Positions 26,755 through 59,381 of a DNA stretch of 64,000 bases are shown here, in pieces (position 1 is the first letter of the stretch; each line of letters starts with the position of its first letter). The notes under the pieces were generated by a model that worked only from the letters and a program-made list of their open reading frames with translations, had not been told where the DNA came from and ran no database searches. The DNA is from Candidatus Roizmanbacteria bacterium RIFCSPLOWO2_01_FULL_39_19 (GTDB lineage Bacteria > Patescibacteriota > Microgenomatia > UBA1406 > HO2-37-13b), in assembly GCA_001789725.1 (NCBI GenBank), contig MGAM01000013.1, positions 14,275-78,274 of the forward strand, read 5' to 3'. The position numbers were made by a program, and so were the translations under genes.

Positions 26755-26940
26755 TATAGCAACCGCAAAACAAAATGTCGGTTTTTTATACTGTCATGCT
26801 GAACTCGCTGCGCCCTTCCGTAGTCTTGTACGAAGGAGGGTTTCAGCATCCCAACAATGAGATCCTGAAATAAAACTTGTCCCGAACTTGATTCGGGATT
26901 CAGGATGACAAATTAGACAGTTTGAATTGCGCTAGCTATA
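26755..26940. mobile_element. 186-bp MITE-like repeat, copy 1
   Basis: Two mismatches versus 45966-46151; ends TATAGCAACCGCAA / TTGCGCTAGCTATA; nested hairpins. Confidence 0.8.
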
Positions 26941-44818: not shown

Positions 44819-45892
44819 TTATTTCTCATTTAAGTCATCTAAACTATCCTTAACTTCTTTTTCTTTTGGATCGGCAGCTGCTTTTTCAGGTTTATTCTCC
44901 TCACTATTGATCGTCTCTTCTTTTGGTTCTTCTACCGCCTTTTCTTCAAGCTGCACTACATCAATATCATATCTCGTTAAATGCCCCGCCAAATTAACAT
45001 TGACGCCACCCTTTCCTATTGCCAGTGGCGCTTGTTCCTGAGTAACAAAAACTTTAGCTGTTTTTTTGGTCTTATCAAGTTCAACAGACTGGACTTTAGC
45101 CGGAGAAAGCGCCTCTCTGACAAATAACTCATCATCGGCGTTATATTGGATAATATCAATTTTTTCATCAATTCCAAGCTCATCATTTACGGATTTTACT
45201 CTTATCCCCTTTTGGCCGACACATGCCCCCACTGGGTCAACAGCAGCAGCATCGGAATAAACAGCTACCTTTGCCCTCTCGCCCGGTTCGCGAACAACAG
45301 CATGAATCTTAACAGTCCCCGATGCAATTTCAGGAACCTCTTTTTTAAAAAGTTCTTCGACAAGTTTTGGGTCGACCCGAGATAAAATTATGCGAGAATT
45401 ACCATATTCATCTTCATCAATTTTCTTGATATAGAGGGTATAGGAGTTGTTCACAGAGTAATCCTCGCTGCGGATTCGCTCTTGTGCCGGTAAGACTCCC
45501 TCAGCCTTACCAATATCAAAATGAACATTTTTGGGATCAAACCTAATAACCCTCCCTTTGACAATTGTGCCTACTTGGGTAGTGTAATGTTTAACTATCT
45601 CCCTTTTCTCCGCTTCACGAATTTTCTGCAAGATTACTTGACGGGCAGTTTGTGCAGCAATTCTTCCAAAACCGGGAGGAGTTATATCCTCTTCGTTTTT
45701 TAAAACATGGGTTTCGCCCGAATTTTTATCAATTTTAGCCTCAAATGTTGCTTCTTCGTCATCTCCATAATCTTTTTTGTAAGCAGCTAAGACTGCCTCC
45801 TGAATTGATGATATAACGTCATCAATTGATATTCCCCGCTCTGTTGCAACTTGATTTAACGCCAAGAAAAACTCACTTTTAATAACAGTCAT
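44819..45892 (-). CDS. nusA: Transcription factor NusA
   Basis: FGRIAAQTARQVI, EVPEI, REPG.R.K, DPVGACVG. Confidence 0.95.
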   Translation of the reverse strand: MTVIKSEFFLALNQVATERGISIDDVISSIQEAVLAAYKKDYGDDEEATFEAKIDKNSGETHVLKNEEDITPPGFGRIAAQTARQVILQKIREAEKREIVKHYTTQVGTIVKGRVIRFDPKNVHFDIGKAEGVLPAQERIRSEDYSVNNSYTLYIKKIDEDEYGNSRIILSRVDPKLVEELFKKEVPEIASGTVKIHAVVREPGERAKVAVYSDAAAVDPVGACVGQKGIRVKSVNDELGIDEKIDIIQYNADDELFVREALSPAKVQSVELDKTKKTAKVFVTQEQAPLAIGKGGVNVNLAGHLTRYDIDVVQLEEKAVEEPKEETINSEENKPEKAAADPKEKEVKDSLDDLNEK

Positions 45893-45965
45893 AAGACGAA
45901 ATTATAGCATTATATGAGGCAAACATCAACTTTCAAAACCATTCTCTGTAGCAGCTTTTTTTAGA

Positions 45966-46151
45966 TATAGCAACCGCAAAACAAAATGTCGGTTTTTTAT
46001 ACTGTCATGCTGAACTCGCTGCGCCCTTCCGTAGTCTTGTACGAAGGAGGGTTTCAGCATCTCAACAATGAGATCCTGAAATAAAACTTGTCCCGAACTT
46101 GATTCGGAATTCAGGATGACAAATTAGACAGTTTGAATTGCGCTAGCTATA
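45966..46151. mobile_element. 186-bp MITE-like repeat, copy 2
   Basis: Direct copy of 26755-26940 with two substitutions. Confidence 0.8.
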
Positions 46152-46166
46152 ACTAGCTAATGGACT

Positions 46167-46709
46167 CTAGCAGTTGCTAAACATTAATGGAATTCCAGCA
46201 CATGAGATAATAAATCTTAAATAGATTGGCCACAAAAATATTACTGGCAGCGAACTGGCATCTAGCGCCACTCCTTGCACTAAGAAATACAGATAAGCAA
46301 CAATTCCGACAAAGCAATAACTTATTGTAAATCTTTTCCACGATTGCCAAATACTAAACCATACCAAAGAAAAAGACAAGATAAGCGATGCAATCAAAAA
46401 AGAAACTGCGGCAACACGCAGGTTTTGCGCTTTTTGATATTCCCTTTTGTATATTTGAGCAATTACGGGGGTTGGAACAATCTCCGGTTGGCGTGATAAC
46501 GACTCATTTTTAATCTGTGTTTTATCAATCGGCAGCTCTACGTGGATTACTGAACGTGTCCCAAATATTTGCTCACTGGTTGCAAACTCTATTTCAACAG
46601 CTTTAGTTTGCAGTTGTGCATGAATAATTTCGCCACCAACATAGATTAAAACACCAAGAAGAAAGTATAGAAACAAGAATTTGTTTATTGCAAAGATTTT
46701 TTTTGTCAC
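46167..46709 (-). CDS. Hypothetical membrane protein
   Basis: Several TM segments. Confidence 0.55.
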   Translation of the reverse strand: MTKKIFAINKFLFLYFLLGVLIYVGGEIIHAQLQTKAVEIEFATSEQIFGTRSVIHVELPIDKTQIKNESLSRQPEIVPTPVIAQIYKREYQKAQNLRVAAVSFLIASLILSFSLVWFSIWQSWKRFTISYCFVGIVAYLYFLVQGVALDASSLPVIFLWPIYLRFIISCAGIPLMFSNC

Positions 46710-46801
46710 AACTTTAACTAAAAAACAGTTTAATTCTTTGATAATCTGAAATCAACTTGTTTATTAAATTTTATGGTTAGGCGACATTCGTCCTGAAGGT
46801 A

Positions 46802-47617
46802 TTATTTAAAAGCAAACCAACCATATAGTCCGGCGTCATTTAATTTTGATTTTAATATTAATGGTGTATTAAATATAGGAAGTAGTTTCTTTAATTCAAG
46901 TTTTAAAGGGCTAATAAATTGCTCAAATTTATTAGCAACACCGCCGCCAATAACCATTATTTCTGGAGACCATAAAACAATTAAATTAGCTAAACCAACT
47001 GCAACCAATTTTGAATATGCTTTCCATATATTTTTATCATCACACTCTTCTGCTGTTATACCAAATATTTGTTTGAATGCTGTTCCGGAAGCATAAGATT
47101 CGAAACATCCTCTTTGACCACAGCTCCAAACTTTTGTCTCATAAAAGTTTATTATTTGATGGGCCGGCTCAATCCCGAAATGGTGAGGAGTAATTTTTTT
47201 ATTTATTATCAAACATCCACCGATACCAGAACTTAGGGTAAGATATCCGACTAGAGAATAATTTCTCCCCGCACCATATACGGCTTCTCCTAACGCAGCA
47301 ACATTCGCATCATTTTCTAAGAGAAATGAAGTTTTTGGGAATGCTTGGAACAGGGGCTGAAAAATATTTTGTCCCCGCCATAATTTTTTTTGTCCCCATT
47401 TAATAAAAATGCCTTTCTTTTTGTCAAGAGATCCAGCAGCAGCAATATTGATTTTTGAAATATCTAAAGATTGACTTTTTATCTCAAAAATAATTCTGTT
47501 AATTTGATCTTGAAAGTTGTCAAAAGTAGTAAAACGAATGATTTTGTCGAATTTTCTTTTATTGTTAGAAAAACCTAATCTTGAAGTAGACCCTCCAATA
47601 TCAATACAAATGGTCAT
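46802..47617 (-). CDS. ROK family sugar kinase
   Basis: DIGGS, LENDAN.AALGE, CGQRGCFE. Confidence 0.9.
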   Translation of the reverse strand: MTICIDIGGSTSRLGFSNNKRKFDKIIRFTTFDNFQDQINRIIFEIKSQSLDISKINIAAAGSLDKKKGIFIKWGQKKLWRGQNIFQPLFQAFPKTSFLLENDANVAALGEAVYGAGRNYSLVGYLTLSSGIGGCLIINKKITPHHFGIEPAHQIINFYETKVWSCGQRGCFESYASGTAFKQIFGITAEECDDKNIWKAYSKLVAVGLANLIVLWSPEIMVIGGGVANKFEQFISPLKLELKKLLPIFNTPLILKSKLNDAGLYGWFAFK

Positions 47618-47749
47618 AAAAGTCTATGTTTATCTTAAATAATATGCTTGCTCACGGTAAATCTCATAATCCAATTTTAGCATTCTATCAATTCGAGTTT
47701 ACTCCGTATGTGTCGAAGTGCTTGCTAGCCGTAGCTTTAACGAAGGATA

Positions 47750-47777
47750 GTCCAGGCTTGTAACAGACGTTAGAACT
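47750..47777 (+). repeat. Array junction J1 (type A right arm), preceded by a REP-like hairpin
   Basis: GTCCAGGCTTGTAACAGACGTTAGAACT after CCGTAGCTTTAACGAAGGATA. Confidence 0.85.
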
Positions 47778-47795
47778 CTTTTCGTTACACGAAAA

Positions 47796-48542
47796 TTATA
47801 CTTTTGTTCCAGTAATGATCGTTGCAAGACCTCCAGACATTGGTAACGATTCGACTTCAGAAAGTCCAACCTGATCAAATACCACGGTTAGATTAGATCC
47901 ATCTCCAAAGTCTGCTAAATATCTATTAATCATCAGAAAACGGTCATAGTGACCATCAAAAAGGGCGAAAGCGAGCGGCATCATTTTGTACATGTATAAG
48001 TGTTGTAGCCTTTGTAAGGCTCTCTGACTAGGTACCGTAATTTCTACTGTAGCGAATCTGCCACCGGGTTTTAACACACGTTTCATTTCCTTTGCAAAAA
48101 AATTGTGGAGATCCGAACACAATGTTTTCACCCCGTATCCAGAAAAAATGGCGTCTAAAGAATTATCCTCAAAAGGTAATGTGGTCGCGTCACTCGTCAT
48201 TAAGCTAACATTTGAGTATCTGTTTCTTTGTTTTCTTTGCTCTGCACCATTAATCATTCCCTTTGAAAAATCAATTGAGAAAATATGTCCATCGGGGCCA
48301 ATAAAGGGTAATAAGTGTTTCCACGATTCGCCTGTGCCTCCCATAAAATCTCCAACTACCATACCTTGCTTAAGTCTTAATACATGAGCGGCATTTCTTC
48401 TCCAAAGTTCGGTAAGCCCTAAAGAAGATAAAGTTGATACAAGTTCATACGAGCCTGATAGATCGTCGAAAAGTCCTTGTAGATATACGGGCGAGTAGTT
48501 TGTATCATGAACGGACGGATTTCCAGCTCCTTCTAAGCCCAT
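47796..48542 (-). CDS. UbiE/MenG-like SAM-dependent methyltransferase (cargo of J1-J2)
   Basis: D..GGTG, IDFS.GM, DAT.LPFEDNS.D, RVLKPGG. Confidence 0.85.
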   Translation of the reverse strand: MGLEGAGNPSVHDTNYSPVYLQGLFDDLSGSYELVSTLSSLGLTELWRRNAAHVLRLKQGMVVGDFMGGTGESWKHLLPFIGPDGHIFSIDFSKGMINGAEQRKQRNRYSNVSLMTSDATTLPFEDNSLDAIFSGYGVKTLCSDLHNFFAKEMKRVLKPGGRFATVEITVPSQRALQRLQHLYMYKMMPLAFALFDGHYDRFLMINRYLADFGDGSNLTVVFDQVGLSEVESLPMSGGLATIITGTKV

Positions 48543-48596
48543 AAGAAATCTATTTTAGCACTTTCTGACAAGATAATCAATTATGTAGACAATCAT

Positions 48597-48637
48597 GTCC
48601 AGGCTCGTGACAGATGTTAGAATCTTTTACGCACAAA
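48597..48637 (+). repeat. Array junction J2 (type A)
   Basis: GTCCAGGCTCGTGACAGATGTTAGAATCTTTTACGCACAAA. Confidence 0.85.
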
Positions 48638-48638
48638 C

Positions 48639-48986
48639 CTAATTGTCATTTTTCTCTAAAAGGACATTGAGTTGCTCAATGAGCGGAGGAATATCATTTT
48701 TGATAATGTCCCAGATGATGTTCGTGTCGACTTCCATATAGTCATGAATAGCAACATTACGAAAGTCGATAATATCTTGCCTTGGAATAGTGTCATGTTC
48801 TTTTCTGAACTCAGATGATATATTTGTTGCAGCCTCCCCAATTATTTCTAAATTTCTGATCGCCGCAGCTTGATCCCAATTATCTGTCTCGAAATGTTCA
48901 AAGTCATTAGCAGTTGCATAAGCAATAACAGCCTCAGCGGCATCTTTCATGTGCATTAAATAAGCATATGGATTACTATTTCTCAT
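48639..48986 (-). CDS. HepT-like (DUF86) HEPN toxin
   Basis: RNLEIIGEA, RNVAIHDY (RX4H). Confidence 0.9.
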   Translation of the reverse strand: MRNSNPYAYLMHMKDAAEAVIAYATANDFEHFETDNWDQAAAIRNLEIIGEAATNISSEFRKEHDTIPRQDIIDFRNVAIHDYMEVDTNIIWDIIKNDIPPLIEQLNVLLEKNDN

Positions 48987-49255
48987 ATAAATCTTTTTTC
49001 GTGTTTTAGTATGCTCTCTTTAAGATAGGGACTTATTCCGTTATAGCTTACTAGGTCAACTTCTTTTTGAAGCGATTTCTCTAGATCCCTTTTTAAACGT
49101 ACAAACAGAAGTCTCATTCCCTTAGGGGGTTGAATCAGTATGTCTATGTCACTTGTATCATCATAATCACCGCGTGCATAAGAACCAAATAATGCAGCTT
49201 TTTTTACGCCATATTGTTCTAGAAGCGGTATTATTTTCTGAGTTATTGTATCCAT
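48983..49255 (-). CDS. MNT (MntA-like) nucleotidyltransferase antitoxin
   Basis: LFGSYARG....SDID; overlaps the HEPN gene start. Confidence 0.9.
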   Translation of the reverse strand: MDTITQKIIPLLEQYGVKKAALFGSYARGDYDDTSDIDILIQPPKGMRLLFVRLKRDLEKSLQKEVDLVSYNGISPYLKESILKHEKRFI

Positions 49256-49351
49256 ATTTGTAATTCTATCAAATTGTTTGTAATTTGCGATGAGATAGTA
49301 ACCAATTTAATAGGCATTTAACTTTCGCCTTGTAGTAATTCGAACTGTTGT

Positions 49352-49402
49352 GAAAGTCTCAAAACTAAGTCCAGGCTAGTTGAATATGTAGGAAATTATT
49401 AT
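49352..49402 (+). repeat. Array junction J3 (type B), core at 49369
   Basis: GAAAGTCTCAAAACTAA-GTCCAGGCTAGTTGAATATGTAGGAAATTATTAT. Confidence 0.85.
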
Positions 49403-49444
49403 AGAGGTCAAATCTTCCAATATATAGCTTAATTGGAATAGACC

Positions 49445-49651
49445 TTATTGTTTGAAATGTTCGTGATTTTCATTCTCCCGAAAAAGTTCACTACAAGTCT
49501 CACAGAGATTTGCTGGTTCTAAGGGTTGTCCCTTGAATTTACATTTTTCTTCTTTACATACATTATCACCTGCTTCAAATTCTTCCTCTGTAATTCCCTT
49601 CATTTCAGGATGAAAACTGTAGCAAGTAAAACAAATATATCGTTTTTTCAT
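49445..49651 (-). CDS. Small Cys/His-rich putative metal-binding protein (sole cargo of J3-J4)
   Basis: CFTC, CKEEKC, CETC, HEH; TGATATAAT just upstream. Confidence 0.7.
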   Translation of the reverse strand: MKKRYICFTCYSFHPEMKGITEEEFEAGDNVCKEEKCKFKGQPLEPANLCETCSELFRENENHEHFKQ

Positions 49652-49660
49652 ATTAAGGTG

Positions 49661-49765
49661 ATTATATCAAAAGTCCGAATCTATTCCTCTGTTCAGATAG
49701 TTTGATATGTTTGAGTGAAGCTAAAAACCGAGTCCACGCTGGTTGAATATGTGGGGAATTATTAT
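49661..49765 (+). repeat. Array junction J4 (long left arm plus type B right arm), core at 49732
   Basis: ATTATATCAAAAGTCCGAATC...GTTTGATATGTTTGAGTGAAGCTAAAAACCGA-GTCCACGCTGGTTGAATATGTGGGGAATTATTAT. Confidence 0.85.
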
Positions 49766-50268
49766 TCAGCTAATATTGCCATTATTTGATTTGCTGTCTC
49801 TTCTGGTGTTTGATTAGTATTGTCAATTTTGTGCTCGTTACTGTACTTCGGTTCGTCTCTTAATTTTCTATTTAATTCAATAGATTGCTTAAAATCTCTG
49901 AAACCACTATCTCTTGATTCCGTAAGAACTCTTTGTTTGAGTATTTCATCGTTATTGAGATAGAGTGTAATAACTATATTTTCATAACTTTTGAGTTCTT
50001 TTATAATTCTTTCAATACCATTTTCTGTAAAGCCACCCACAATGACGTTCCTATAATTATGTTTTGCATAATTCTTCAATATGAATACTAAATTTTCAAA
50101 AGACATTTCTTCTTCAGCGGTGCTTGTATTTTTCCAGTCTTGATTAAGGTGGTAATCTCGGATCCAATCGTAATCAATATAAACAGAATCCAATTTCTTT
50201 TTAAGAAGCCTGGCGAGTGTGGTTTTACCCGATCCTTGAGCACCTAATATCAAGATAAAATTATTCAT
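49762..50268 (-). CDS. P-loop kinase (AAA_18/AAA_33-like)
   Basis: GAQGSGKTT, IDNT..TPEET. Confidence 0.85.
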   Translation of the reverse strand: MNNFILILGAQGSGKTTLARLLKKKLDSVYIDYDWIRDYHLNQDWKNTSTAEEEMSFENLVFILKNYAKHNYRNVIVGGFTENGIERIIKELKSYENIVITLYLNNDEILKQRVLTESRDSGFRDFKQSIELNRKLRDEPKYSNEHKIDNTNQTPEETANQIMAILAE

Positions 50269-50278
50269 ATCGAATCAA

Positions 50279-50362
50279 GTATATCAAAAGTCCAGATCTA
50301 TTCCTCTGTCGTAACAGTTTGATATGTTTGAGTGAAGCTAAAAAGTCTGTCCAAGGGGAGGG
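50279..50362 (+). repeat. Array junction J5: left arm near-identical to J4, right side tRNA-3'-like; core at 50349
   Basis: ...GTTTGATATGTTTGAGTGAAGCTAAAAAGTCT-GTCCAAGGGGAGGG. Confidence 0.75.
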
Positions 50363-50463
50363 TATCTTCCGTTAAAACTTCAGATACCAGGGATTCCCTC
50401 TTTCGCATAAAGCTTCAGAGGGCTAGCCATCCTCCGATTTATCCTTCTCTAAAGCTACTGATA
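50361..50463. repeat. Three REP-like hairpins at the 3' end of the GIY-YIG gene
   Basis: GGTATCT..AGATACC (50361-50388), CCCTCT..AGAGGG (50396-50422), TATCCTTCTCTAAAGCTACTGATA (50440-50463, inside the CDS). Confidence 0.75.
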
Positions 50464-50707
50464 ATGATTTGAAAAATCTTTTCTTCATAAATGCTATACC
50501 ACTCCCACTTTTTAAATATTTTTCGAATGTGATAGCCTGTTTTTCAGTTTTAAAAGCACAGTACCACTCAAGTTCATAATGTAAGTTTGACTTAGTAGAT
50601 TTTACACGGCCGGAAAGGTGTTCTCTAAGACGATTTTTCAAATCACTTGTATAACCTACATAATAACGATCGGTTTTGTAGTTTCTCAAAATATACGTAT
50701 AGAACAT
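50423..50707 (-). CDS. Stand-alone GIY-YIG nuclease
   Basis: FYTYIL..YYVGYT.DL..RL.EH, FEKYLKSGSG. Confidence 0.92.
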   Translation of the reverse strand: MFYTYILRNYKTDRYYVGYTSDLKNRLREHLSGRVKSTKSNLHYELEWYCAFKTEKQAITFEKYLKSGSGIAFMKKRFFKSLSVALEKDKSEDG

Positions 50708-50730
50708 AGTACTTTAGAGCTATACAGCTT

Positions 50731-50787
50731 GCTATCTTTCGTTAAAACTTCAGATAGCCAGCTATCCGTAGCTTTAGCGAAGGATAG
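50731..50787. repeat. Inverted pair of REP-like hairpins upstream of GIY-YIG
   Basis: GCTATCTTTCGTTAAAACTTCAGATAGC and CTATCCGTAGCTTTAGCGAAGGATAG. Confidence 0.75.
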
Positions 50788-50820
50788 TCCACGCTGGTTG
50801 ATTATGTAGGAAATTATTAT
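50787..50820 (+). repeat. Array junction J6 (type B), preceded by the same REP-like hairpin as J1
   Basis: GTCCACGCTGGTTGATTATGTAGGAAATTATTAT. Confidence 0.85.
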
Positions 50821-50829
50821 CAGACCTAC

Positions 50830-51183
50830 TTATTTACAATTTGAATAACAAAACGATATTTTCCCTATTACATCAAGTCTACGAAGTGGCAGAGGATTGT
50901 TTTTCACAAAAATCATATCCTGTTCAACTCTATCTACAATTCCGACCTCATTAACGTCAGGATTTTTTAAAGACTTAAAAGCAATAATATCCCCCATTTT
51001 GAGAGAACCAAGTCTATAACTTAGCTTGTTTACAATGACATATGCTCCAACTGGATATTTTGAAATTGTATTACGTAGTTGTAATGGTTGAAATGCGAAG
51101 AGATATAGGAAAATGGGAATTAGAAACAATAGAAATATACCGAAGACCAAAATTATTATGGATTTGAATAGTTTATCCACCAT
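50830..51183 (-). CDS. S26 signal-peptidase-like protein, catalytic residues doubtful
   Basis: TM then VIVNKLSY..GDIIAF..VIGK; start set at ATG 51183 below TGATATACT. Confidence 0.65.
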   Translation of the reverse strand: MVDKLFKSIIILVFGIFLLFLIPIFLYLFAFQPLQLRNTISKYPVGAYVIVNKLSYRLGSLKMGDIIAFKSLKNPDVNEVGIVDRVEQDMIFVKNNPLPLRRLDVIGKISFCYSNCK

Positions 51184-51190
51184 AGTTTTC

Positions 51191-51310
51191 AGTATATCAG
51201 AAACCAAGAAGTCCGAATCCACACTCCTGTTGCGATAGTTTGATACATTTCGGTGAGGCTAAAATGTTGGTCCAGGCTCGTAACAGACGTTAGAACTTTT
51301 TACGCACAAA
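51191..51310 (+). repeat. Array junction J7 (long left arm plus type A right arm), core at 51270
   Basis: AAGTCCGAATC...GATAGTTTGATACATTTCGGTGAGGCTAAAATGTTG-GTCCAGGCTCGTAACAGACGTTAGAACTTTTTACGCACAAA. Confidence 0.85.
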
Positions 51311-51324
51311 GAAAGGTATGATTG

Positions 51325-51570
51325 CTACTTTTTTTTGTAAGCAATTGATGGAGAAGTAGATCGAGGCAAAATAGATTGAACAATATTTTTTGGCAATTGC
51401 ATAGCCGCCTGCTTCAAAAATACAGAGGCATCGAGAATCTCAAGCAGTACCGCTTCTCTTTTTGGGGAGAAATGCACAATAAGATCGCCCGATTGCTCAG
51501 CATAATCTATGTTTTGATCATTTAGCTCGATAAGCAAAATATCATCCTCTTTGTTGTATTTAAATTTCAT
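51325..51570 (-). CDS. DUF2283 protein (putative antitoxin)
   Basis: Y..EDDILLI..LEILDAS. Confidence 0.85.
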   Translation of the reverse strand: MKFKYNKEDDILLIELNDQNIDYAEQSGDLIVHFSPKREAVLLEILDASVFLKQAAMQLPKNIVQSILPRSTSPSIAYKKK

Positions 51571-51572
51571 AT

Positions 51573-51830
51573 TTAATAATACCTTCCTTTCTCTGCGGGA
51601 TATACCGTAATTATCTTTATTATATCATCTTCAAGTTTGTATACAACTCTCAATATGAGTTTAGTATCGAAATTTTTCGAGGCAATAATTTTTGGTACAT
51701 CCGACTCTGAATCAATATGATCAGGATTGTTGACAGTATCTTTAATCTGTGCCAGGCTTATTTTAAAACCTCTTTTGGCAAGCAAAGGAATTTTATCTTT
51801 AACAAGATGCCTACTTAGAATGAATTTCAT
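51573..51830 (-). CDS. DUF4258 protein (putative RelE-like toxin)
   Basis: SRH, NPD, LRVVY...IITVYP; upstream of DUF2283. Confidence 0.8.
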   Translation of the reverse strand: MKFILSRHLVKDKIPLLAKRGFKISLAQIKDTVNNPDHIDSESDVPKIIASKNFDTKLILRVVYKLEDDIIKIITVYPAEKGRYY

Positions 51831-51967
51831 AAACTCAATTCTAACACTTTGCACAGTTAAGATTCTAGCCTTGTGGGGGAATTATTACAAAAGTTATTCT
51901 GTTACAACAAGAGTTATAATTTTACCTCTCTTGATTTTGATCTAATTTCCAATTAGGATAATAACAG

Positions 51968-53065
51968 ATGAGAAAAAACAAAAGAAGTAAGAAGCCATAC
52001 AATCCTTCTAATAGGAAATTCTTAATTGTAGCTTTATTAATTATAATTGTTGTATTATTTACTGGCAAAACCTTTCTACAAAAACAGGAGTCCCAATCCA
52101 ACAATGTGCTAGGATTACTCCTCGCTAAAGGAGACAACGATTCAGGTGGATCATCCGGAAGTGGTTCGGGGAGTGGATCGTCTGAGAGTGGAAGCTCGGA
52201 TTCAAGTGAAAGCCGATCTGATTCGGGTTCTTCAAATTCTGAATCTTCAGGTTCAGAATCATCTGGAAGTTCTGAGTCAACAAGTGGCACGGGAGGAGCT
52301 TCTGGTTCTTCGGGTTCATCTGGGGTTTCAAACATCGTTCCAACACGAACGAGGTTCATAAATCCCACAACAGGTATTCGCACGGAAACAGAGGTGAAAC
52401 AAGATGAAGAGCGTACCGAAGTAAGACTTAGTGAGGGTGAGCGTATCAGAACAAGAACGAAAGATGGGAGAACAAGAATTGATATTACCTCAGGAGGTGT
52501 GAAAACCAGACTTGAAATAAGAGATGGTAGGTTTATTATAAAAGCAGAACAGGGAGATGGAACTGAAGTTGAACTTGAAGATGACGCGCTCTTTAAGATT
52601 GAGGAAAGATTGGCTACAAACCAGATAAAAATAGCAACAGATGAGGCAAATAGATTTGTAATACAACGAGGTAATGCCGGTGCTGTTAGTCAATTCCCGC
52701 TATCCATCGATCTTGCCACCAATACGCTGATAGTGAACACCCCTTCAGGACAAAAAAATGTAACAGTGCTTCCAGATCAGGCAGTGCAAAATCTTCTCGT
52801 TGCAAACATTGTTAGTCGTTTAGGTAGCAGTGCGGTTGTTAATTCCTTTCGAACTGGTGAGACCTCAACGCTTGCTCAAGTTATAACATTGGGTGAGCAA
52901 AATGGTATTCCAATCTATGAAATCAATGGAATCTCAGATCAAAGACTACTGGGCTTTGTTCCCGTAACTATTGAAAAGACTATTGCTGTTTCTGCCGAAA
53001 CTGGAGCCGTAGTCTCAACTCAAGTCTCATTTGTTAATAAGGTGTTAGATTTTCTCTCCTTTTAA
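51968..53065 (+). CDS. Membrane-anchored protein with Ser/Gly linker
   Basis: TM, poly-S/G tract, C-terminal RLLGFVPV..VSAETG. Confidence 0.7.
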   Translation: MRKNKRSKKPYNPSNRKFLIVALLIIIVVLFTGKTFLQKQESQSNNVLGLLLAKGDNDSGGSSGSGSGSGSSESGSSDSSESRSDSGSSNSESSGSESSGSSESTSGTGGASGSSGSSGVSNIVPTRTRFINPTTGIRTETEVKQDEERTEVRLSEGERIRTRTKDGRTRIDITSGGVKTRLEIRDGRFIIKAEQGDGTEVELEDDALFKIEERLATNQIKIATDEANRFVIQRGNAGAVSQFPLSIDLATNTLIVNTPSGQKNVTVLPDQAVQNLLVANIVSRLGSSAVVNSFRTGETSTLAQVITLGEQNGIPIYEINGISDQRLLGFVPVTIEKTIAVSAETGAVVSTQVSFVNKVLDFLSF

Positions 53066-53080
53066 ACTCTACATTGTCTT

Positions 53081-53132
53081 GAAAGCCTAAAAAAGTAAGT
53101 CCAGGCTGGTTGAATATGTTGGAAATTATTAC
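53081..53132 (+). repeat. Array junction J8 (type B), core at 53099
   Basis: GAAAGCCTAAAAAAGTAA-GTCCAGGCTGGTTGAATATGTTGGAAATTATTAC. Confidence 0.85.
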
Positions 53133-53141
53133 CAGCAACAA

Positions 53142-53708
53142 TCATTTCTCTAAAATCCCCTCAATTCCTTCCAGTAACCTATCAAATTGCGTATACCCAG
53201 CACTTGCATTGAAGTGACCAGAGTTTGATATAAACGTTAAATCTACTCCAAGTTTACGTGCAAGCTCCTCACCATTTCCCAAAGAAACATATGGATCGTT
53301 ATCTGAATGATACACAGTAGCAATTCCTGCATTGGATTTTATTGTTTCCCAATCAAAGTTGAATCCATTACTGAAAGCATAATCACCATCCCAATTTTTA
53401 ATAGGTTTGACGCCGATTGGTGCAGAAACAAGAACAACCGCTTTAACTGGCTCTTGAAGTCTTTCAAGTAGTCGTAACAGGAATAACCCTCCCAAACTGT
53501 GACCAATTAAAATTGTATTGTCTTTTATGCTTTGTTCATAATCTTTAAGAACCTTGAGCCACGCTTCAAGAGATTGTCCTTCAGGGGTAGGAAACTGAGG
53601 AATAGTGGTGTCATATCCTGCTTTAACAAGCTCTTGTTTTAGCCACGGAAACCAGTTCTCACCTGGATGACCACCTGTGCCATGAAAAATAAAGAGGTTT
53701 TCTTTCAT
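53142..53708 (-). CDS. RBBP9/YdeN family alpha/beta hydrolase
   Basis: HG..G...NWFPWL, GHSLG, SDNDPYV, GHFN. Confidence 0.9.
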   Translation of the reverse strand: MKENLFIFHGTGGHPGENWFPWLKQELVKAGYDTTIPQFPTPEGQSLEAWLKVLKDYEQSIKDNTILIGHSLGGLFLLRLLERLQEPVKAVVLVSAPIGVKPIKNWDGDYAFSNGFNFDWETIKSNAGIATVYHSDNDPYVSLGNGEELARKLGVDLTFISNSGHFNASAGYTQFDRLLEGIEGILEK

Positions 53709-53805
53709 AGAGGAAATTATATCAGAAGTTCCATCTTTCAAATTGTCATAGGATTGAGCTCAATAGTAGCGAGAAGGATAAAGTTTCATGTATACTTTCT
53801 TTTAT

Positions 53806-54798
53806 ATGAGTGAAGCTGGAGATATGGGCGAACCACCAGTATCAAGATTGCGTGGTGATTTAGTTCAAAGACAACAATCAAAAGAAGCAAAAGGGTCTCC
53901 TTCGGAACGATTTCACCTTGCCACTACAGTCAACACTGTTGGTGATGAAGATGGCCCACCTTTTTCAGCGTCTTATCAACTTGATAATACAGGAAATCTC
54001 AAAGGAAGTCTTACTCCGAGAAATGGAGAGATGGTGAGCGTGCTATCTGTTGCAGATGGACTAGGTGGAGGTGCTTCAGAACTTCACAATGGATATGGCT
54101 CAACTCCACGAACTGGAGCCTATATTGCTGCACGAGAGGTACAATCTATTATTCCCGAACTTATTGCGAGTGATACAGGTTTTTTATCTGCATCAACCGC
54201 AGACATAAAATCACGACTTGAAGAGGCATTATCACAAAGGTTTCGTACTATGTCAGAGCGGTATCCACCTACACATGGAGAAAGTAGATTGAAAAGTGAT
54301 CTTATCAATCCGCTTGCCACAACATTCTCAACAGCCATCTTACATGAAACACCAGAGGGTACTAAGGTAAAAGTCTTTTGGAGAGGAGATTCCCCAGTAG
54401 TTATTGCAACACCCACAGAAACTTACGCAACAGAAACTGGCACAACTGGTGATGCAGCAATGGGCAGAGAAGGAAGTGTTAACCTATCAAATCAGTCTTT
54501 ACAGGCGGCAGAATTTACTTTTCCAGCAGATACGATTGTTGTATTCGCTGCATCTGATGGATGGTTCAAACGACCTGGCACTGATGGAATTCAAAGAGGA
54601 GTCCAAGACCTAATACAGGCATTGGGAGAAGCTGTTGGATCAAGTGATGTTCAACCAAGAATCAAAGCTAAATACGTTGTTGGATTGGTAGAACCTGATG
54701 ATACAACGCTTGCTCTTATAACGAATAGAAATAGTCCATCAGAATTACATCTGATACCGCCGATAAGTATTAAGCCGATAACCCCATTATCTATATAA
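53806..54798 (+). CDS. PP2C/SpoIIE-like phosphatase
   Basis: DED, VADGLGG, TT, GDS, ASDG, DDTT. Confidence 0.75.
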   Translation: MSEAGDMGEPPVSRLRGDLVQRQQSKEAKGSPSERFHLATTVNTVGDEDGPPFSASYQLDNTGNLKGSLTPRNGEMVSVLSVADGLGGGASELHNGYGSTPRTGAYIAAREVQSIIPELIASDTGFLSASTADIKSRLEEALSQRFRTMSERYPPTHGESRLKSDLINPLATTFSTAILHETPEGTKVKVFWRGDSPVVIATPTETYATETGTTGDAAMGREGSVNLSNQSLQAAEFTFPADTIVVFAASDGWFKRPGTDGIQRGVQDLIQALGEAVGSSDVQPRIKAKYVVGLVEPDDTTLALITNRNSPSELHLIPPISIKPITPLSI

Positions 54799-54811
54799 AA
54801 GCTTTAATAGC

Positions 54812-55966
54812 TTATGTGAGAGAACCTGCCCTTTTATAAAAATACGTATTAGCAAGTAAAACCGCCTGTGCACATACAAGGGCTGGGACTATTCCCCAAA
54901 TATCTGCTATGACGCCCAAAATAAATGACGACAGGGCAATTAAAAGGCACGTAGTAAATGATTGAAGCGACGCCATTGTTGCTCGTTGTTCATTAGTAAA
55001 TTCTTGATGGAAAAGGGTGTTCTCAGCAACATTGGCTGAGCCGTAAAATAATGAAGTCAATGCCATAAAGATCGGCGAGAGTGGAGTAATGAAAATCGCA
55101 GCAAGAGTAGTTATAATTGGCGTAGATATAGTATCCGTAATAATTACTTTTATTGGTGTAAATCTTTTAATTATCTTTCCACCAAAATAATAACTTACCG
55201 CAGCAGCAACTCCTGAGACAGTGCGAGGAATACCAAGAGCCCATGTTGGCCAGACTAGATTGTAAAAAGCAGCCTTAAACTCATACGCAGCCTCTCCCAC
55301 GCCATAGTTAATGGTTCCAGCGATAGTGAGTAATCGTAATTTTTTATTCTCAAGTGTCTTTTTAATAGCTATATTTAAGTGTTGAAATACATTCCCAGTC
55401 TTTTTAGTATGTACTTTTGGTTCTATCAACTGTGTACTCAATAACACCGATATAACCTGAGGAATAACAGAGAGCCACATAACAAGCGGAAATGAGATAT
55501 ATGCTATGAAGCCTCCTAAAACTGCAGAAACTGCTGATGCTACCTGAAACATTGAACTCGTTTGTCCAAGATGATGAGAGTATTCCTGTTCTTGATTGTG
55601 TTCTCTTAGTGTATCGTGAAGTAATGAAGTGTTATTACCACTAAAAAACGATCTACCTAATCCTTCAAAGATAGCTCCAACCACAAGAATCCAATATGAG
55701 ATTCCGATTGCATAAAAAACTACTGCTAAGACACCTGATAATGCTCCTAAAATCATCGTATTTTTCCTTCCAATTCTGTCTGAAAAAATACCTGTTGGGA
55801 CTTCAAGTAAGGCCGTTGAAATAAAAACAACAGAAATAATACTCATGGCAAGTGCATACGAGCCAGTAATTCTTTGAAAGTAGAGAATTAAGATTGCAGC
55901 AAAGAGACGAAAACTTGAGAAGAAGTTAAACCAAGTGAGGACTCTAATGTTTCTGTGAGGCGACAT
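54812..55966 (-). CDS. MFS transporter
   Basis: EVPTG..SDRIGRK, many TMs, RAT..S. Confidence 0.9.
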   Translation of the reverse strand: MSPHRNIRVLTWFNFFSSFRLFAAILILYFQRITGSYALAMSIISVVFISTALLEVPTGIFSDRIGRKNTMILGALSGVLAVVFYAIGISYWILVVGAIFEGLGRSFFSGNNTSLLHDTLREHNQEQEYSHHLGQTSSMFQVASAVSAVLGGFIAYISFPLVMWLSVIPQVISVLLSTQLIEPKVHTKKTGNVFQHLNIAIKKTLENKKLRLLTIAGTINYGVGEAAYEFKAAFYNLVWPTWALGIPRTVSGVAAAVSYYFGGKIIKRFTPIKVIITDTISTPIITTLAAIFITPLSPIFMALTSLFYGSANVAENTLFHQEFTNEQRATMASLQSFTTCLLIALSSFILGVIADIWGIVPALVCAQAVLLANTYFYKRAGSLT

Positions 55967-56107
55967 TATTCAAGTGTATCAGAAGTTCTAACCGTTCCGC
56001 CTCATTGTAGTTTGGATTGTTAGGGCAGGTATCCATTAAACTAGACACATATTCTCACTGACAAATAGTGTTAAAAGTAACAATAAGTGAGGAGGTGAAC
56101 CACGTTT

Positions 56108-56362
56108 ATGGGTACATTTAAATTCATACCAAAAGAAACAAAGGAACAGATATTAAAACGAATAAAAGAAGAAGGTATCACTGTTTTGCAAGCAGCGGCA
56201 GACGCAGGCATCTCTACAAAGTCAATATATAACTGGATGCGAAGCAAAACCATTTCAGATTGTTCTGTTTTGGAAATTAGTCGCCTCAAGCGGGAAAACA
56301 AAGAATTACTAGAGATAATAGGTAGACTAACCCACAATTTAACTAAACCAAAAAAAAATTAA
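56108..56362 (+). CDS. IS3 OrfA (HTH)
   Basis: GIS..SIYNW, EISRLKREN.EL. Confidence 0.85.
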   Translation: MGTFKFIPKETKEQILKRIKEEGITVLQAAADAGISTKSIYNWMRSKTISDCSVLEISRLKRENKELLEIIGRLTHNLTKPKKN

Positions 56363-56372
56363 AGAGATCCGT

Positions 56373-57209
56373 ATGATAGTTACAGAAAAAAAACGAGAAA
56401 GTAAAACACAATTAGCCAAGAACCTTGGAGTTTCAAGATCGTCTCTGTACTACAAAACAAAAAGAGATGATCAAGACCAAGAAATGAAAAAACAAATCTT
56501 AATTGTGCTTGGTTTACATCCAAGTTACGGGCATAAAAGAATTGCTCTTGAGTTTGGACTTAACAACAAACGGATACGTCGTGTTATGAAAAAATACGAC
56601 ATAAAACCATACCAAAGAAGGGTTCAGAGACTTAGAAAAAAAGAAGATGAGGGAAAAGAAGCAACGGAATTAAAGAATGAGATTGTTGGATTTTGTCCAA
56701 TAGCACCAAACATCGTCTGGGCATCCGATTTTACATATATTAAATTTCAAGGATCATTTATCTATCTGGCAACAGTCATTGATATATATACCAGAGAGAT
56801 TATCGGCTGGAATATATCAATGCGACATGATACGAATTTAGTCTTGGAGGCATTAAAACAAGCTATCGAGAGGATACAAACAAAACCACTCTATCTGCAT
56901 TCTGATCAAGGATCAGAATATGACGCAAGGGAGTATGAAAACCATGTTATGGAAAAAGGTATTGTTATGTCCATGAGTCACAAATCATCTCCCTGGGAAA
57001 ATGCTTATCAGGAATCTTTTTATTCACAATTTAAAGTTGATTTAGGACACGTTGATAGATTTGATACAAGAGAACAGTTAATTGAAGAAATGTATCAAAC
57101 AATTTATTACTACAACAATGAAAGAATACATGGTAGTTTAAAGATATCTCCTGTTAAATTTAAACAAAATCATGAAAATCGGTTAGAGAAAGTGAGAATA
57201 ACTGTCTAA
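56373..57209 (+). CDS. IS3 OrfB DDE transposase
   Basis: WASDFTYI, HSDQGSEY, ENAYQESF, YYNNERIH. Confidence 0.92.
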   Translation: MIVTEKKRESKTQLAKNLGVSRSSLYYKTKRDDQDQEMKKQILIVLGLHPSYGHKRIALEFGLNNKRIRRVMKKYDIKPYQRRVQRLRKKEDEGKEATELKNEIVGFCPIAPNIVWASDFTYIKFQGSFIYLATVIDIYTREIIGWNISMRHDTNLVLEALKQAIERIQTKPLYLHSDQGSEYDAREYENHVMEKGIVMSMSHKSSPWENAYQESFYSQFKVDLGHVDRFDTREQLIEEMYQTIYYYNNERIHGSLKISPVKFKQNHENRLEKVRITV

Positions 57210-57227
57210 AGAAATGGGTACTTGACA

Positions 57228-57665
57228 AGCAGTTCCTGTTCCTGCACCAACATTGCCGTTTTGTACTGGTTCTGATGAAAGGTTGTCAACAGCTTCAGCA
57301 CCATACTCTGGGTCATATTGAAACAGTTCAACTCCAAGATCGTACACGATAGCTCCACTAACCTCTGGAATGATTGACTTCCCAGTTTTCCATCCTATTC
57401 CTTGTTCTGTAAGCTTTTGAGAAATTGGTGTGGCAGATAGTAACCCACTCAAACTTCCACCAGCAATAAAAATCCCTCTCCTCTCTGGGAAACTTTTTCC
57501 ATTTCGCAGGTTTTCTGTTGAGTACAATCCAGGAGCTCCACCGTAGGACACGTATGAGACAGGCAATACCTTATCGAAGAGAATAAAAGTGCAACCCGTA
57601 AGTTTATCTGGATGAGTGGAATGTCCAACCTGAACACCAGATAAAGCAGTGAGAGTATTGTTCAT
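57228..57665 (-). pseudogene. Peptidase S58/DmpA (P1) family gene truncated by IS3
   Basis: GVQVGH..LTGCT, GGAPG, GGS..GL, GNVGAGTG then the IS end; C-terminal half absent. Confidence 0.85.
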
Positions 57666-57671
57666 ACAGGT

Positions 57672-57759
57672 ATTATATCTCAGCTTTTTAGATTGTTATA
57701 AAAGCCTAAACGGAGCGTGTCCAGGCTCGTAACAGACGTTAGAACTTTTTGGGCACAAA
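57672..57759 (+). repeat. Array junction J9 (type A), core at 57719
   Basis: GATTGTTATAAAAGCCTAAACGGAGCGT-GTCCAGGCTCGTAACAGACGTTAGAACTTTTTGGGCACAAA. Confidence 0.85.
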
Positions 57760-57830
57760 TCTGAGGGATAAGTTATATAGATATTTAAGGCCCTATATCA
57801 ATTTTTCTGCTATAATAGGCCAAACTGTAT

Positions 57831-59381
57831 ATGACAGCAGAAGTAGCTTCTCATACAAAACAGGTCTTTTTAGTCGCTGAGGGTTCAATTGGTCCAGTAG
57901 AAAGAGATCGAGGCGGAAACTGGTATGAACCACTGGGAGTTTGGGTTCATCCCGAAATACAATCCTATATGGATTCAATGCCGGAAGCAGAACGTCTACT
58001 GGTTGAACGATCATTTCCTCTAAGTTTTGCTGTAGCCACTGCTTATAACGCTCAAATTGCTGACGTTGATTCTCATCAATTATGGCCACAATCTTTTTAT
58101 GAAAATGACGGTACGCAAAAACTACTTGAAGCGGCTGAAGTAAATCCTTCAATTGGAGATCCATTTGCAGTGGTCAGAGGTCAACCACCATATGGCGTTA
58201 TTCCCTTCAGTCTTACATATTTTGATGAACTTCAATCTGCTGTTGCTGCTTTAGAAGATATGATAGCAACAGACAGTCCGTCCGCCGTAAATTTAGCTCC
58301 ATATTTAGATGCACTCCGAAGAGCATACACACCCGATGAATTACGGACCAGTGATTTACCCTATTTGCATGAGGCGGATACAGCATGGGTGCACCTTGAT
58401 CCCGACACAGAGTTAATTTTTTTTGCAGAACCTACCGAGTCTTATTCTGATAACCTTGCTGCATTACGAGATGACGATAGCATAAGAAGATGGGCAATTG
58501 ATGTTGCAAATGCAAACGGACTTGGGCCATGGAAGAATTTTTTTGAGTTTAGGTTGATGCAGAAAGTTGATTTTGTGGTTAACCAAGAAGAAGTAGATGC
58601 AATTAGAGCAACAACTCGTAATCATTTCGTTAGACCAGGAGATGCACCTGTCCCTGCAAGTTTAGAGTTTAGGCGCTTACTTCTAGCCTCTGGACACGGA
58701 GCTCATCCCGCAAGAACAGCAAAAAATTACCCAAATTTTAATGATATTCGAAACGATCCAAATGGTGGTTATAAGAACGTACTCTACACCAATATGATTG
58801 AGGAAGGATTAGATAGTCAAGCCGTACCAATTCTGATGCATGCTTTTGGCACTGATTTTATGAGTCGATTCCCCAAAGAAAGACTCATGAGAGGCTCAAC
58901 ATTGCGGATTATCGGACATGAAGAAAATCATTCTTACAGGGTACACAAGGGTAATCTTGCTTTGGAAGAATTAAAGGCAACCATTGATGGCTTTGTGGCA
59001 GTTGATGAAGCGGGGAGATTTAAGGACGAAATAGATACGGTTTGTTTATCTACCGTCGGAGGAGCATTGTTTATTCGTTATAAAACTGCAAAAGCTCGGG
59101 CTGAAGGAGACACAAGAACCGAAAGAGGCTATAAGGCATACCATACCGGTGATACTATCATGATGAATTATCTTGCAGCAGCTGGGGCGTTTATTGACGT
59201 TAATGGTCATTATGGGGATATTGATTTTGATAATTTCAGGACAGCAATGAGAGACCTATGTAAAGAACTAGAGCAAGTCAGAGAAGGGACTGTTTCAGCT
59301 TCTGATTTTCAAGCAGCATGGGGAGCAGAAGAGATCTGGGATAGCTTTAAGGTTCTGCCTCCTGGAGTAGAACTCCACTAA
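57831..59381 (+). CDS. Zincin metallopeptidase, M49/DPP-III-like
   Basis: AKNYPN, KNVLY.N, HEENH, LEELKA. Confidence 0.6.
   Translation: MTAEVASHTKQVFLVAEGSIGPVERDRGGNWYEPLGVWVHPEIQSYMDSMPEAERLLVERSFPLSFAVATAYNAQIADVDSHQLWPQSFYENDGTQKLLEAAEVNPSIGDPFAVVRGQPPYGVIPFSLTYFDELQSAVAALEDMIATDSPSAVNLAPYLDALRRAYTPDELRTSDLPYLHEADTAWVHLDPDTELIFFAEPTESYSDNLAALRDDDSIRRWAIDVANANGLGPWKNFFEFRLMQKVDFVVNQEEVDAIRATTRNHFVRPGDAPVPASLEFRRLLLASGHGAHPARTAKNYPNFNDIRNDPNGGYKNVLYTNMIEEGLDSQAVPILMHAFGTDFMSRFPKERLMRGSTLRIIGHEENHSYRVHKGNLALEELKATIDGFVAVDEAGRFKDEIDTVCLSTVGGALFIRYKTAKARAEGDTRTERGYKAYHTGDTIMMNYLAAAGAFIDVNGHYGDIDFDNFRTAMRDLCKELEQVREGTVSASDFQAAWGAEEIWDSFKVLPPGVELH

Follow-up and report, generated by a model that had tools for sequence, protein, structure and literature searches.

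A tRNA-Tyr-end-like sequence bordering a small GIY-YIG element in a cassette array of a Roizmanbacteria genome

Genomic islands and prophages integrate at tRNA genes, and direct repeats of the tRNA 3' end then border them. The Seg proteins have DNA-binding domains, and homing does not duplicate its target. Phage T4 has a free-standing GIY-YIG homing endonuclease gene, segB, in a tRNA gene cluster, as described in the available part of PMC2330249. GIY-YIG open reading frames (ORFs) were also reported in non-intron insertion sequences in rRNA genes of the candidate phyla radiation (CPR) (PMC11270868); in the part of that article available, the authors doubt that these ORFs spread by homing, and neither the term 'tRNA gene' nor a duplication of a tRNA end occurs. 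In the present study, we analyzed a stretch of 64 kb (the window, to which coordinates refer unless a contig or locus is named) from contig C13 of the 658-kb genome of Candidatus Roizmanbacteria bacterium RIFCSPLOWO2_01_FULL_39_19 (G000). It contains an array of gene cassettes, one junction of which, J5, is very probably the right junction of a GIY-YIG element of about 440 bp (50349-50786, minus strand).

Junction J5 and the 3' end of tRNA-Tyr

Nine co-oriented junctions, from 47750 to 57719, begin with GTCCA on the plus strand. Eight of them continue with one of two conserved arms (arm A in four, arm B in four), and J5 alone continues with AGGGGAGGG. The parts of J5 and of the element next to it are as follows.

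50349..50362, minus strand: probable copy of the tRNA-Tyr 3' end (the tail), with T-stem 3' strand CCCTC, acceptor 3' strand CCCTTGG, A73 and C74
50361..50388, minus strand: hairpin hp2, with a 7-bp stem GGTATCT/AGATACC and a 14-nt loop GAAGTTTTAACGGA, from the minimum-energy DNA fold
50389..50396, minus strand: GAATCCCT, an octamer like a T-loop and T-stem, carried by the element; 4 of 5 right ends that bear hp2 have it in the form (G/A)AATCCC(C)T
50396..50422, minus strand: hairpin hp1, directly after the stop codon, with stem CCCTCT/AGAGGG and loop GAAGCTTTATGCGAA, from the DNA fold
50423..50707, minus strand: gene of a 94-aa GIY-YIG nuclease (Pfam PF01541, E 1.4e-15, 57.8 bits against a cut-off of 22.6)
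50708..50786, minus strand: left end and leader of the element, with the boundary hairpin and a second, hp2-like hairpin
50731-50758, minus strand: the hp2-like hairpin in the left leader
50763-50786, minus strand: the boundary hairpin TATCC-TTCGCTAAAGCTAC-GGATA, found in 12 of 12 loci directly after '...AC'
50787..50819, minus strand: junction J50787, arm B with core CGTGGAC, the left neighbour of the element; relatives have the tRNA itself there

On the plus strand, J5 (50349-50396) reads GTCCAAGGGGAGGG / TATCT / TCCGTTAAAACTTC / AGATA / CCAGGGATTC. On the minus strand, the stop codon of the GIY-YIG gene is followed by hp1, GAATCCCT, hp2 and CCCTCCCCTTGGAC. Inspection of the window thus confirmed the layout of half-sequence, hairpin and half-sequence that an earlier description, made without database searches (the sequence-only reading), had given. 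That reading joined the two halves to an 18-mer resembling a tRNA end, which requires the removal of hp2 and one of the two CCCT copies flanking it, 30 nt in total. No excision is needed for the contiguous 14-mer CCCTCCCCTTGGAC, which is identical at 13 of 14 positions to the 3' end CCCTCCCCCTGGAC of the tRNA-Tyr of the same genus; the tRNA-Tyr genes of two members of the genus, G001 and G010, both end with GGGGGTTCGAATCCCTCCCCCTGGAC (13/14 for J5) and differ from the 18-mer at 1 of 18 positions. Furthermore, the tRNA-Tyr of G047, which belongs to another family of the order, ends with TTCGAATCCCTCCCCTTGGAC, the exact 18-mer, and matches the tail at 14 of 14. The interpretation of the J5 sequence as a tRNA end was thus confirmed in relatives.

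This match is restricted to J5. The other eight junctions agree with the same-genus tRNA-Tyr tail at only 7-9 of 14 positions. When that tail was searched with up to 2 mismatches, J5 was the sole match in the window (0.08 expected; any match in 7 of 100 shuffles), and the 13-mer CCCTCCCCTTGGA occurs once in the genome, at J5. The 5' acceptor strand of the genome's own tRNA-Tyr, CCAGGGG, pairs with CCCTTGG of the tail, with one G-U pair. ARAGORN found no tRNA anywhere in the window, and upstream of the tail lie the hairpins and a protein gene; thus there is no functional tRNA gene at J5. We are highly confident that the tail is a copy of the tRNA-Tyr 3' end.

The sequence-only reading predicted that the target is a tRNA-Tyr carrying C1:G72 plus A73. 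Among 223 genomes of the order, a structured pattern (CCAAGGG, 55-80 nt, CCCTTGGA) matched six, four of which have tRNA-Tyr(GTA) there according to ARAGORN (G047, G134, G143 and G042); the matches in G043 and G217 were not called as tRNAs. BLAST with the G047 tRNA-Tyr gave matches in 24 of the 25 genomes of the own family, and in the 21 returned family loci where ARAGORN identified tRNA-Tyr(GTA), all 21 genes start with CCA and end with TGGAC. Genes of the predicted kind thus occur throughout the order. The tyrosyl-tRNA synthetase (TyrRS) of the genome is a 364-aa protein on contig C6, whose best relatives of solved structure (E 7e-107 to 3e-34) are all tyrosyl-tRNA synthetases; these (1j1u, 2cya, 2dlc and 1n3l) we take from their entry codes to be archaeal or eukaryal, and the enzyme is accordingly of the archaeal/eukaryal type. 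The published basis of the prediction is also real: according to the available part of the paper by Mukai et al. (2017, PMC5370408), a C1-G72 tRNA-Tyr with a variable arm, together with a TyrRS of the archaeal and eukaryal type, occurs in Roizmanbacteria and other CPR bacteria. The tail predicts C1:G72 and A73 because the normal tRNA-Tyr of this lineage is of the archaeal type. The switch of tRNA-Tyr identity is therefore already known, and the new part is its context.

GIY-YIG elements behind tRNA-Tyr and tRNA-Glu

Close homologues of the GIY-YIG protein were found in 12 of the 223 genomes, one copy each, with 60-84% identity, and the flanks were read at all 12 loci of this subfamily. On the left side, a hairpin with a 5-bp stem, whose loop is TTCGCTAAAGCTAC or closely similar, follows '...AC' without a gap in all 12. 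In 9 of 12, all pairs of the stem are of the Watson-Crick type, and 7 distinct stem pairs were seen; thus it covaries. The 18 nt before the element read GAATCC...AC in 9 of 12 loci. The preceding gene is tRNA-Tyr in L113, L116, L117 and L119 (cut by the contig start in L119) and tRNA-Glu in L114, L115, L120 and L064; in L121, a remnant of the Glu type lies there, and the gene itself is 200 nt upstream. In the window, L063 and L118, the left neighbor is not a tRNA end of the GAATCC...AC type.

On the right side, the stop codon is followed by none to two hairpins with loops GAAGCTTTATGCGAA or GAAGTTTTAACGRA, and then by a copy of the local tRNA 3' end. This tail is an exact copy of tRNA-Tyr in L119 (14/14) and of tRNA-Glu in L114 (17/17) and L120 (18/18); in L115, L064, L113 and L101, it is near-exact. 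The last, a homologue in addition to the 12, is on a Roizmanbacteria contig found via arm B, which has tRNA-Tyr, three junctions, arm B, the GIY-YIG gene, hp1, hp2 and the tail; its tail is CCTTCCCCTGGAC, and the tRNA-Tyr of the same genome ends with CCTTCCCCCTGGAC. The tail and the local T-stem agree as CCCTC in the window and its genus, CCTTC in L101, CCTCC in G105 and CCCTC in G029. Since the tail follows the local T-stem, it is a copy of the resident tRNA end that was made or kept at insertion. The elements sit right behind nucleotide 74 of genes for tRNA-Tyr or tRNA-Glu, bounded by a 13-18-nt repeat of the local tRNA end, and leave the tRNA intact. Direct repeats of the tRNA 3' end are thus found on both sides in relatives (exact in L119, L114 and L120), and in the window the right copy alone resembles a tRNA. 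The C1:G72 tRNA-Tyr is not the sole target, since GIY-YIG relatives also use tRNA-Glu.

The distribution of the elements indicates mobility. Proteins about 80% identical lie at Tyr sites in some genomes and at Glu sites in others, and the best matches of the window protein are in another family (80-84%) versus 67-72% in its own. The patchy distribution at a conserved target is inconsistent with vertical descent, and the site is always a tRNA end or its relic. An empty-site comparison between two members of the same genus, G212 and G213, gave no result, as the flank had no DNA match in G212.

The right-end hairpins recur as well. The 17-nt core of hp2 has exactly two copies in the window, at 50370 and 50740, which flank the GIY-YIG gene; a search with it gave three matches, including one with 3 mismatches (0.34 expected; none of 100 shuffles reached three). 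Hairpin hp2 lies at the equivalent place in the right ends of L101, L115, L117/L107 and L118, and homologues of hp1 in L101, L114 and L118 have different but still complementary stems. The minimum-energy DNA fold of the window sequence contains both hairpins (-10 kcal/mol, z -1.87; 10 of 200 shuffles equal). A scan of the metagenomes with the hp2 pattern gave two loci, both with the L101 sequence, and no further cases. The form of GAATCCCT is retained even in L117, where the local T-stem would yield GAATCCTC; this octamer is conserved among elements irrespective of the local T-stem and is therefore element-borne, not target-derived. Thus, of the tRNA-end parse proposed earlier, the 14 nt after hp2 stand as a tRNA 3' end, and the assignment of GAATCCCT to the target does not: only these 14 nt are target-derived, and GAATCCCT and hp2 move with the element. 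The two parts read through as one tRNA end in the window because the local T-stem starts with CCCT.

The hp2-like hairpin of the left leader (50731-50758) is missing from the homologous leaders at 47720-47749 and in L063, L064 and L114. The 5' strand of its stem seems to reuse a pre-existing GCTGGCTAT, as if the loop and the complementary strand had been added locally.

The cassette array and its proposed anchor

The motif GTCCA[G/C]GCT has 12 matches in the whole genome, 8 of them in the array stretch. The remaining junctions and one remnant are listed here.

47720..47749, minus strand: solo remnant of the left end of a GIY-YIG element, TATCCTTCGTTAAAGCTACGGCTAGCAAGC, adjoining the core of J47750 and with no nuclease gene behind it
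47750..47790, minus strand: junction J47750, arm A
48597..48637, minus strand: junction, arm A
49369..49401, minus strand: junction, arm B
49732..49764, minus strand: junction, arm B
51270..51310, minus strand: junction, arm A
53099..53131, minus strand: junction, arm B
57719..57759, minus strand: junction, arm A, the rightmost on the contig

The genes between the junctions are small, miscellaneous and mostly on the minus strand; they include those of a UbiE-type methyltransferase, a HepT/MNT pair, a 68-aa protein, a P-loop kinase, the GIY-YIG nuclease, a truncated signal peptidase and a DUF2283/DUF4258 pair. The final nucleotides of both arms, CCTGGAC or CGTGGAC, are the last 7 or 5 nt of tRNA-Tyr. 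Arm B was found in 8 of 61 relatives (the own genome counted) and arm A in 3 of 61, and across genera the arms differ by 0-3 mismatches in 33 nt beside unrelated cargo genes. In G015, G003 and L104, a single cassette lies between tRNA-Tyr ending with CCTGGAC and arm B ending with CCTGGAC, and G047 has two junctions within 3.4 kb of its tRNA-Tyr. In L104, the last arm is followed by CAGGCACCA, a sequence which in G134 and G143 is the encoded CCA end with the native flank of tRNA-Tyr; the displaced 'CA' and native flank fit insertion after C74. Among the 8 arm-B loci of the species collection, a co-oriented tRNA-Tyr within 3 kb was identified by ARAGORN in three, and a truncated one in one more. 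This arrangement supports the view that cassettes stack at the tRNA-Tyr boundary in this lineage.

In the genome itself, ARAGORN identified 27 tRNAs and a transfer-messenger RNA (tmRNA), none of them Tyr, and no tRNA lies to the right of the window on C13. By BLAST, the first 65 nt of the own tRNA-Tyr (CCAGGGG...GGGGGTT) were found on the minus strand of contig C8, which begins within the T-loop of this gene. The sequence-only reading had placed the growing end of the array at a minus-strand tRNA beyond the right edge of the window. The junctions of the relatives, which lie directly downstream of tRNA-Tyr, agree with the first half of this proposal. As to the second, there is no tRNA further right on C13, but the array also extends to other contigs, and such a tRNA may lie beyond C13. 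Metagenome-assembled genomes of these organisms break at tRNA-Tyr, and both the tRNA and the array can be missed in them. Contig C7 (1-900) starts in a methyltransferase-like cassette, which ends with an arm variant and CCTGGAC and is followed by a leader copy; therefore, the array is split over at least three contigs.

Other features of the array may be noted. A leader of about 93 nt follows the core in three cassettes (49644-49736, 50261-50353 and 51182-51274), with the fourth copy on C7 (about 800-900). Its last part, next to the start codon, is TGATATAAT or TGATATACT, which resembles an extended -10 element, and thus the cassettes seem to bring their own promoter. In the stretch 56071-57665, the largest cassette contains an IS3-type transposase gene (rve domain, 56373-57209), which is adjoined by a truncated S58 peptidase gene (57183-57665).

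Two candidates for a mover of the cassettes were rejected. The attC sites of integrons have an inverse core and a core, RYYYAAC...GTTRRRY, and a length of 57-141 nt. Profile searches of the window and genome found no IntI, and the arms have no RYYYAAC...GTTRRRY ends by inspection; thus, the array is not a canonical integron. The second candidate was a Y1 (HUH) transposase, a homologue of which (229 aa, with HFHFLL and YIHLNH motifs) is encoded on contig C9 (18018-18707; L125:1315-2004). Inverted copies of CCTCGGGAGTGAA lie on both sides of its gene, as with a transposase associated with repetitive extragenic palindromes (REP), and these flanks are unrelated to hp1 and hp2. The family is carried by 6 of 8 arm-bearing relatives versus 47 of 61 overall, so that there is no enrichment. 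An Rfam scan of 45500-58500, with E up to 1, found nothing at the junctions and a sub-threshold match to the fluoride riboswitch elsewhere.

A different GIY-YIG gene lies immediately upstream of the own tRNA-Tyr on C8, and it belongs to a second kind of small GIY-YIG gene, found at the 5' side of tRNAs (C8:1-450 and C10:10706-11010 in this genome; L072, L073, L076, L082, L083 and L085-L091 in relatives). The own tRNA-Tyr and tRNA-Gly each have such a neighbor. In 14 of 28 loci of the relatives, the protein match is followed at a distance of 7-71 nt by a co-oriented tRNA. Several loci have an ORF whose last codons and stop codon are provided by the 5' part of the tRNA itself (TAG of TAGCTCAG), with a displaced copy of the tRNA 5' segment upstream of the ORF. 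In L073 and L086 (both on contig C1 of G004), tandem pseudo-tRNA repeats follow tRNA-Asp and tRNA-Lys, with the anticodon arm replaced by an unrelated hairpin.

Outside the array, a 186-nt repeat (99% identical) occurs at 26755-26940 and 45966-46151, upstream of a BipA-like GTPase gene and of nusA. It forms nested hairpins, one of which belongs to the TTCG...CGG loop family, and the copy scanned has no Rfam match.

Possible origin of the repeat and comparison with known systems

Taken together, J5 is probably the right junction of a mobile GIY-YIG element that was inserted behind tRNA-Tyr and later displaced by cassettes. The repeat would have arisen at insertion: most plausibly, the nuclease would cut at offset positions between the T-stem/T-loop and the 3' boundary of the tRNA, and the overhang would be filled in. 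Alternatively, repair of the break might anneal within the same stretch from the T-arm to the 3' boundary. The copy in the window would first have been inserted behind a tRNA-Tyr. Small cassettes with arms A and B, whose last 5-7 nt (CCTGGAC or TGGAC) are common with tRNA-Tyr, may later have been inserted at the boundary and pushed the element away, which would have given the array of nine junctions. Its anchor would be the tRNA-Tyr whose 5' 65 nt end contig C8. That the nuclease itself drives the duplication is plausible but somewhat short of probable. A bolder version, which is rather unlikely, would be cassette stacking without an integrase: 94-aa GIY-YIG nucleases would recognize the T-arm and acceptor end of tRNA-Tyr and tRNA-Glu, insert themselves with duplication of 13-18 nt, and mobilize the arm A and arm B cassettes in trans.

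Several observations weigh against insertion behind tRNA-Tyr followed by displacement. The left neighbor of the window element is arm B rather than a tRNA, and its two flanks share only TGGAC. The window tail has T where the same-genus tRNA has C, and it could come from a G047-type donor instead of the local gene; the tail of L117 is poor (11/14). The 94-aa protein consists of a catalytic domain and nothing else, and its gene is the sole ORF in the element. In five loci, hp2 lies between the element-borne GAATCCCT and the tail, which simple fill-in does not explain, and classical homing makes no target duplication. The 12 loci are a small sample of related members. Finally, the link from C8 to the array is unproven, as it rests on binning and analogy and the 3' end of the own tRNA-Tyr is unassembled; when nine metagenome runs, as contigs, were compared with C8:1-700, those from the likely source runs extended just 9 nt beyond the C8 start, and the remaining matching contigs were tRNA-Tyr genes of other organisms.

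An alternative, which we consider improbable, is that a site-specific recombinase acting at the tRNA-Tyr 3' end has stacked the cassettes in the way of an integron, with J5 as an attB half-site and the GIY-YIG gene as cargo. The nine co-oriented junctions with a core common to tRNA-Tyr, the conservation of the arms across genera (0-3 mismatches in 33 nt) beside differing cargo, and the single cassettes bounded by CCTGGAC behind tRNA-Tyr in G015, G003 and L104 fit this possibility. However, there is no tyrosine recombinase in the window, the only PF00589 match of the genome is on contig C15 (serine recombinases were not searched), and no integrase was found among 26 ORFs around the G047 tRNA-Tyr. 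Furthermore, the GIY-YIG element has the same ends at tRNA-Glu, with Glu-type tails, which is unexpected for a Tyr-specific att site. An integrated recombinase ending with S-K-G-R-D-S-N at J5, as proposed previously, is contradicted by the ORF list, in which no plus-strand ORF ends there. The accompanying idea of an attB remnant was close to the mark insofar as the tail is a kept copy of a tRNA end; as a relic of an integrase site it fails, because the tail belongs to the GIY-YIG element.

It is less probable still that the tail is a tRNA-like mimic carried by the element and not derived from the local tRNA. The window tail is exact to the G047-type tRNA-Tyr and 1 nt off the same-genus type, and GAATCCCT before hp2 is clearly element-borne, which would fit this reading. 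Nevertheless, the tail switches between Tyr and Glu types among elements about 80% identical in protein, tracks the T-stem of the lineage in 4 of the 5 cases at tRNA-Tyr, and agrees fully in three loci. Remains of a decayed second tRNA-Tyr gene beside the GIY-YIG gene are very improbable. GAGGG-AAT-CCCT upstream of hp2 resembles a T-arm minus 4 nt, and the pseudo-tRNA repeats of L073 and L086 show that such sequences occur in relatives, but homology to tRNA-Tyr does not go beyond about 25 nt, and the relatives have sharp 13-18-nt repeats beside an intact tRNA instead of decayed full genes. Chance resemblance, for which the short, C-rich matched stretch and the 7 matching shuffles of 100 (up to 2 mismatches, in the window) might speak, can practically be dismissed, as the match lies exactly at the junction, in register with the shared GGAC, and is found again at the ends of homologous elements in at least 10 further loci, each with its own tRNA sequence.

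Insertion of the GIY-YIG element behind tRNA-Tyr would add a new case to the known systems: a very small GIY-YIG element at the exact 3' boundary of a tRNA gene, apparently copying the tRNA end, inside stacks of accessory cassettes of a CPR lineage. We found no description of GIY-YIG elements that duplicate a tRNA end in the literature searched, in which subscription journals were mostly uncovered. If the nuclease drives insertion, it would, as a minimal protein, read the ends of tRNA genes at the DNA level, and genomes regarded as streamlined, with few classical mobile elements, would have in these elements a way to gain genes.

The tRNA islands and prophages are similar in their insertion at the 3' part of the gene, the tRNA left intact, the tRNA-end repeat on the far side and the possible stacking in tandem. 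However, the GIY-YIG element is about 0.44 kb long and encodes no integrase, only a GIY-YIG domain of 94 aa, and its related copies use two tRNAs with locally matching 13-18-nt repeats. Integron arrays also consist of co-oriented, small and mostly single-gene cassettes (here 0.36-1.8 kb, including toxin-antitoxin pairs) with conserved sites between them, whereas here no IntI was found, the arms are 33-41 nt long, and there are promoter-like leaders and a tRNA-end anchor. REP sequences with their associated transposases, and IS200/IS605 elements, are alike in having short hairpins next to a fixed short sequence and in inserting 3' of a specific sequence, and the genome has a Y1 homologue; in contrast, the flanks of the Y1 gene are unrelated to hp1 and hp2, and arm-bearing relatives are not enriched in the family. 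IS200-type transposition makes no duplication.

The archaeal-type tRNA-Tyr of CPR bacteria, as given in the available part of the paper by Mukai et al. (2017, PMC5370408), has the same features as the one found here, which was rediscovered from a remnant of 14-18 nt; the remnant thus allowed the correct prediction of an unusual tRNA identity from the DNA letters alone. The rRNA insertions of CPR bacteria (PMC11270868, in its available part) come from the same phylum-level group and likewise have small GIY-YIG genes in or beside structural RNA genes without intron features, and one locus among the relatives, L074, is an rRNA-type GIY-YIG insertion. The nearest functional analogue is SegB of phage T4 (PMC2330249, as far as the available part goes), with a GIY-YIG gene among or beside tRNA genes and a patchy occurrence, as expected for selfish spread. 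In contrast to the T4 Seg proteins, the element described here has, to judge from its sequence, the catalytic domain only and is bounded by hairpins and a tRNA-end repeat; insertion without target duplication, which marks homing, is not what was observed, since next to the element the end of the tRNA is repeated over 13-18 nt.
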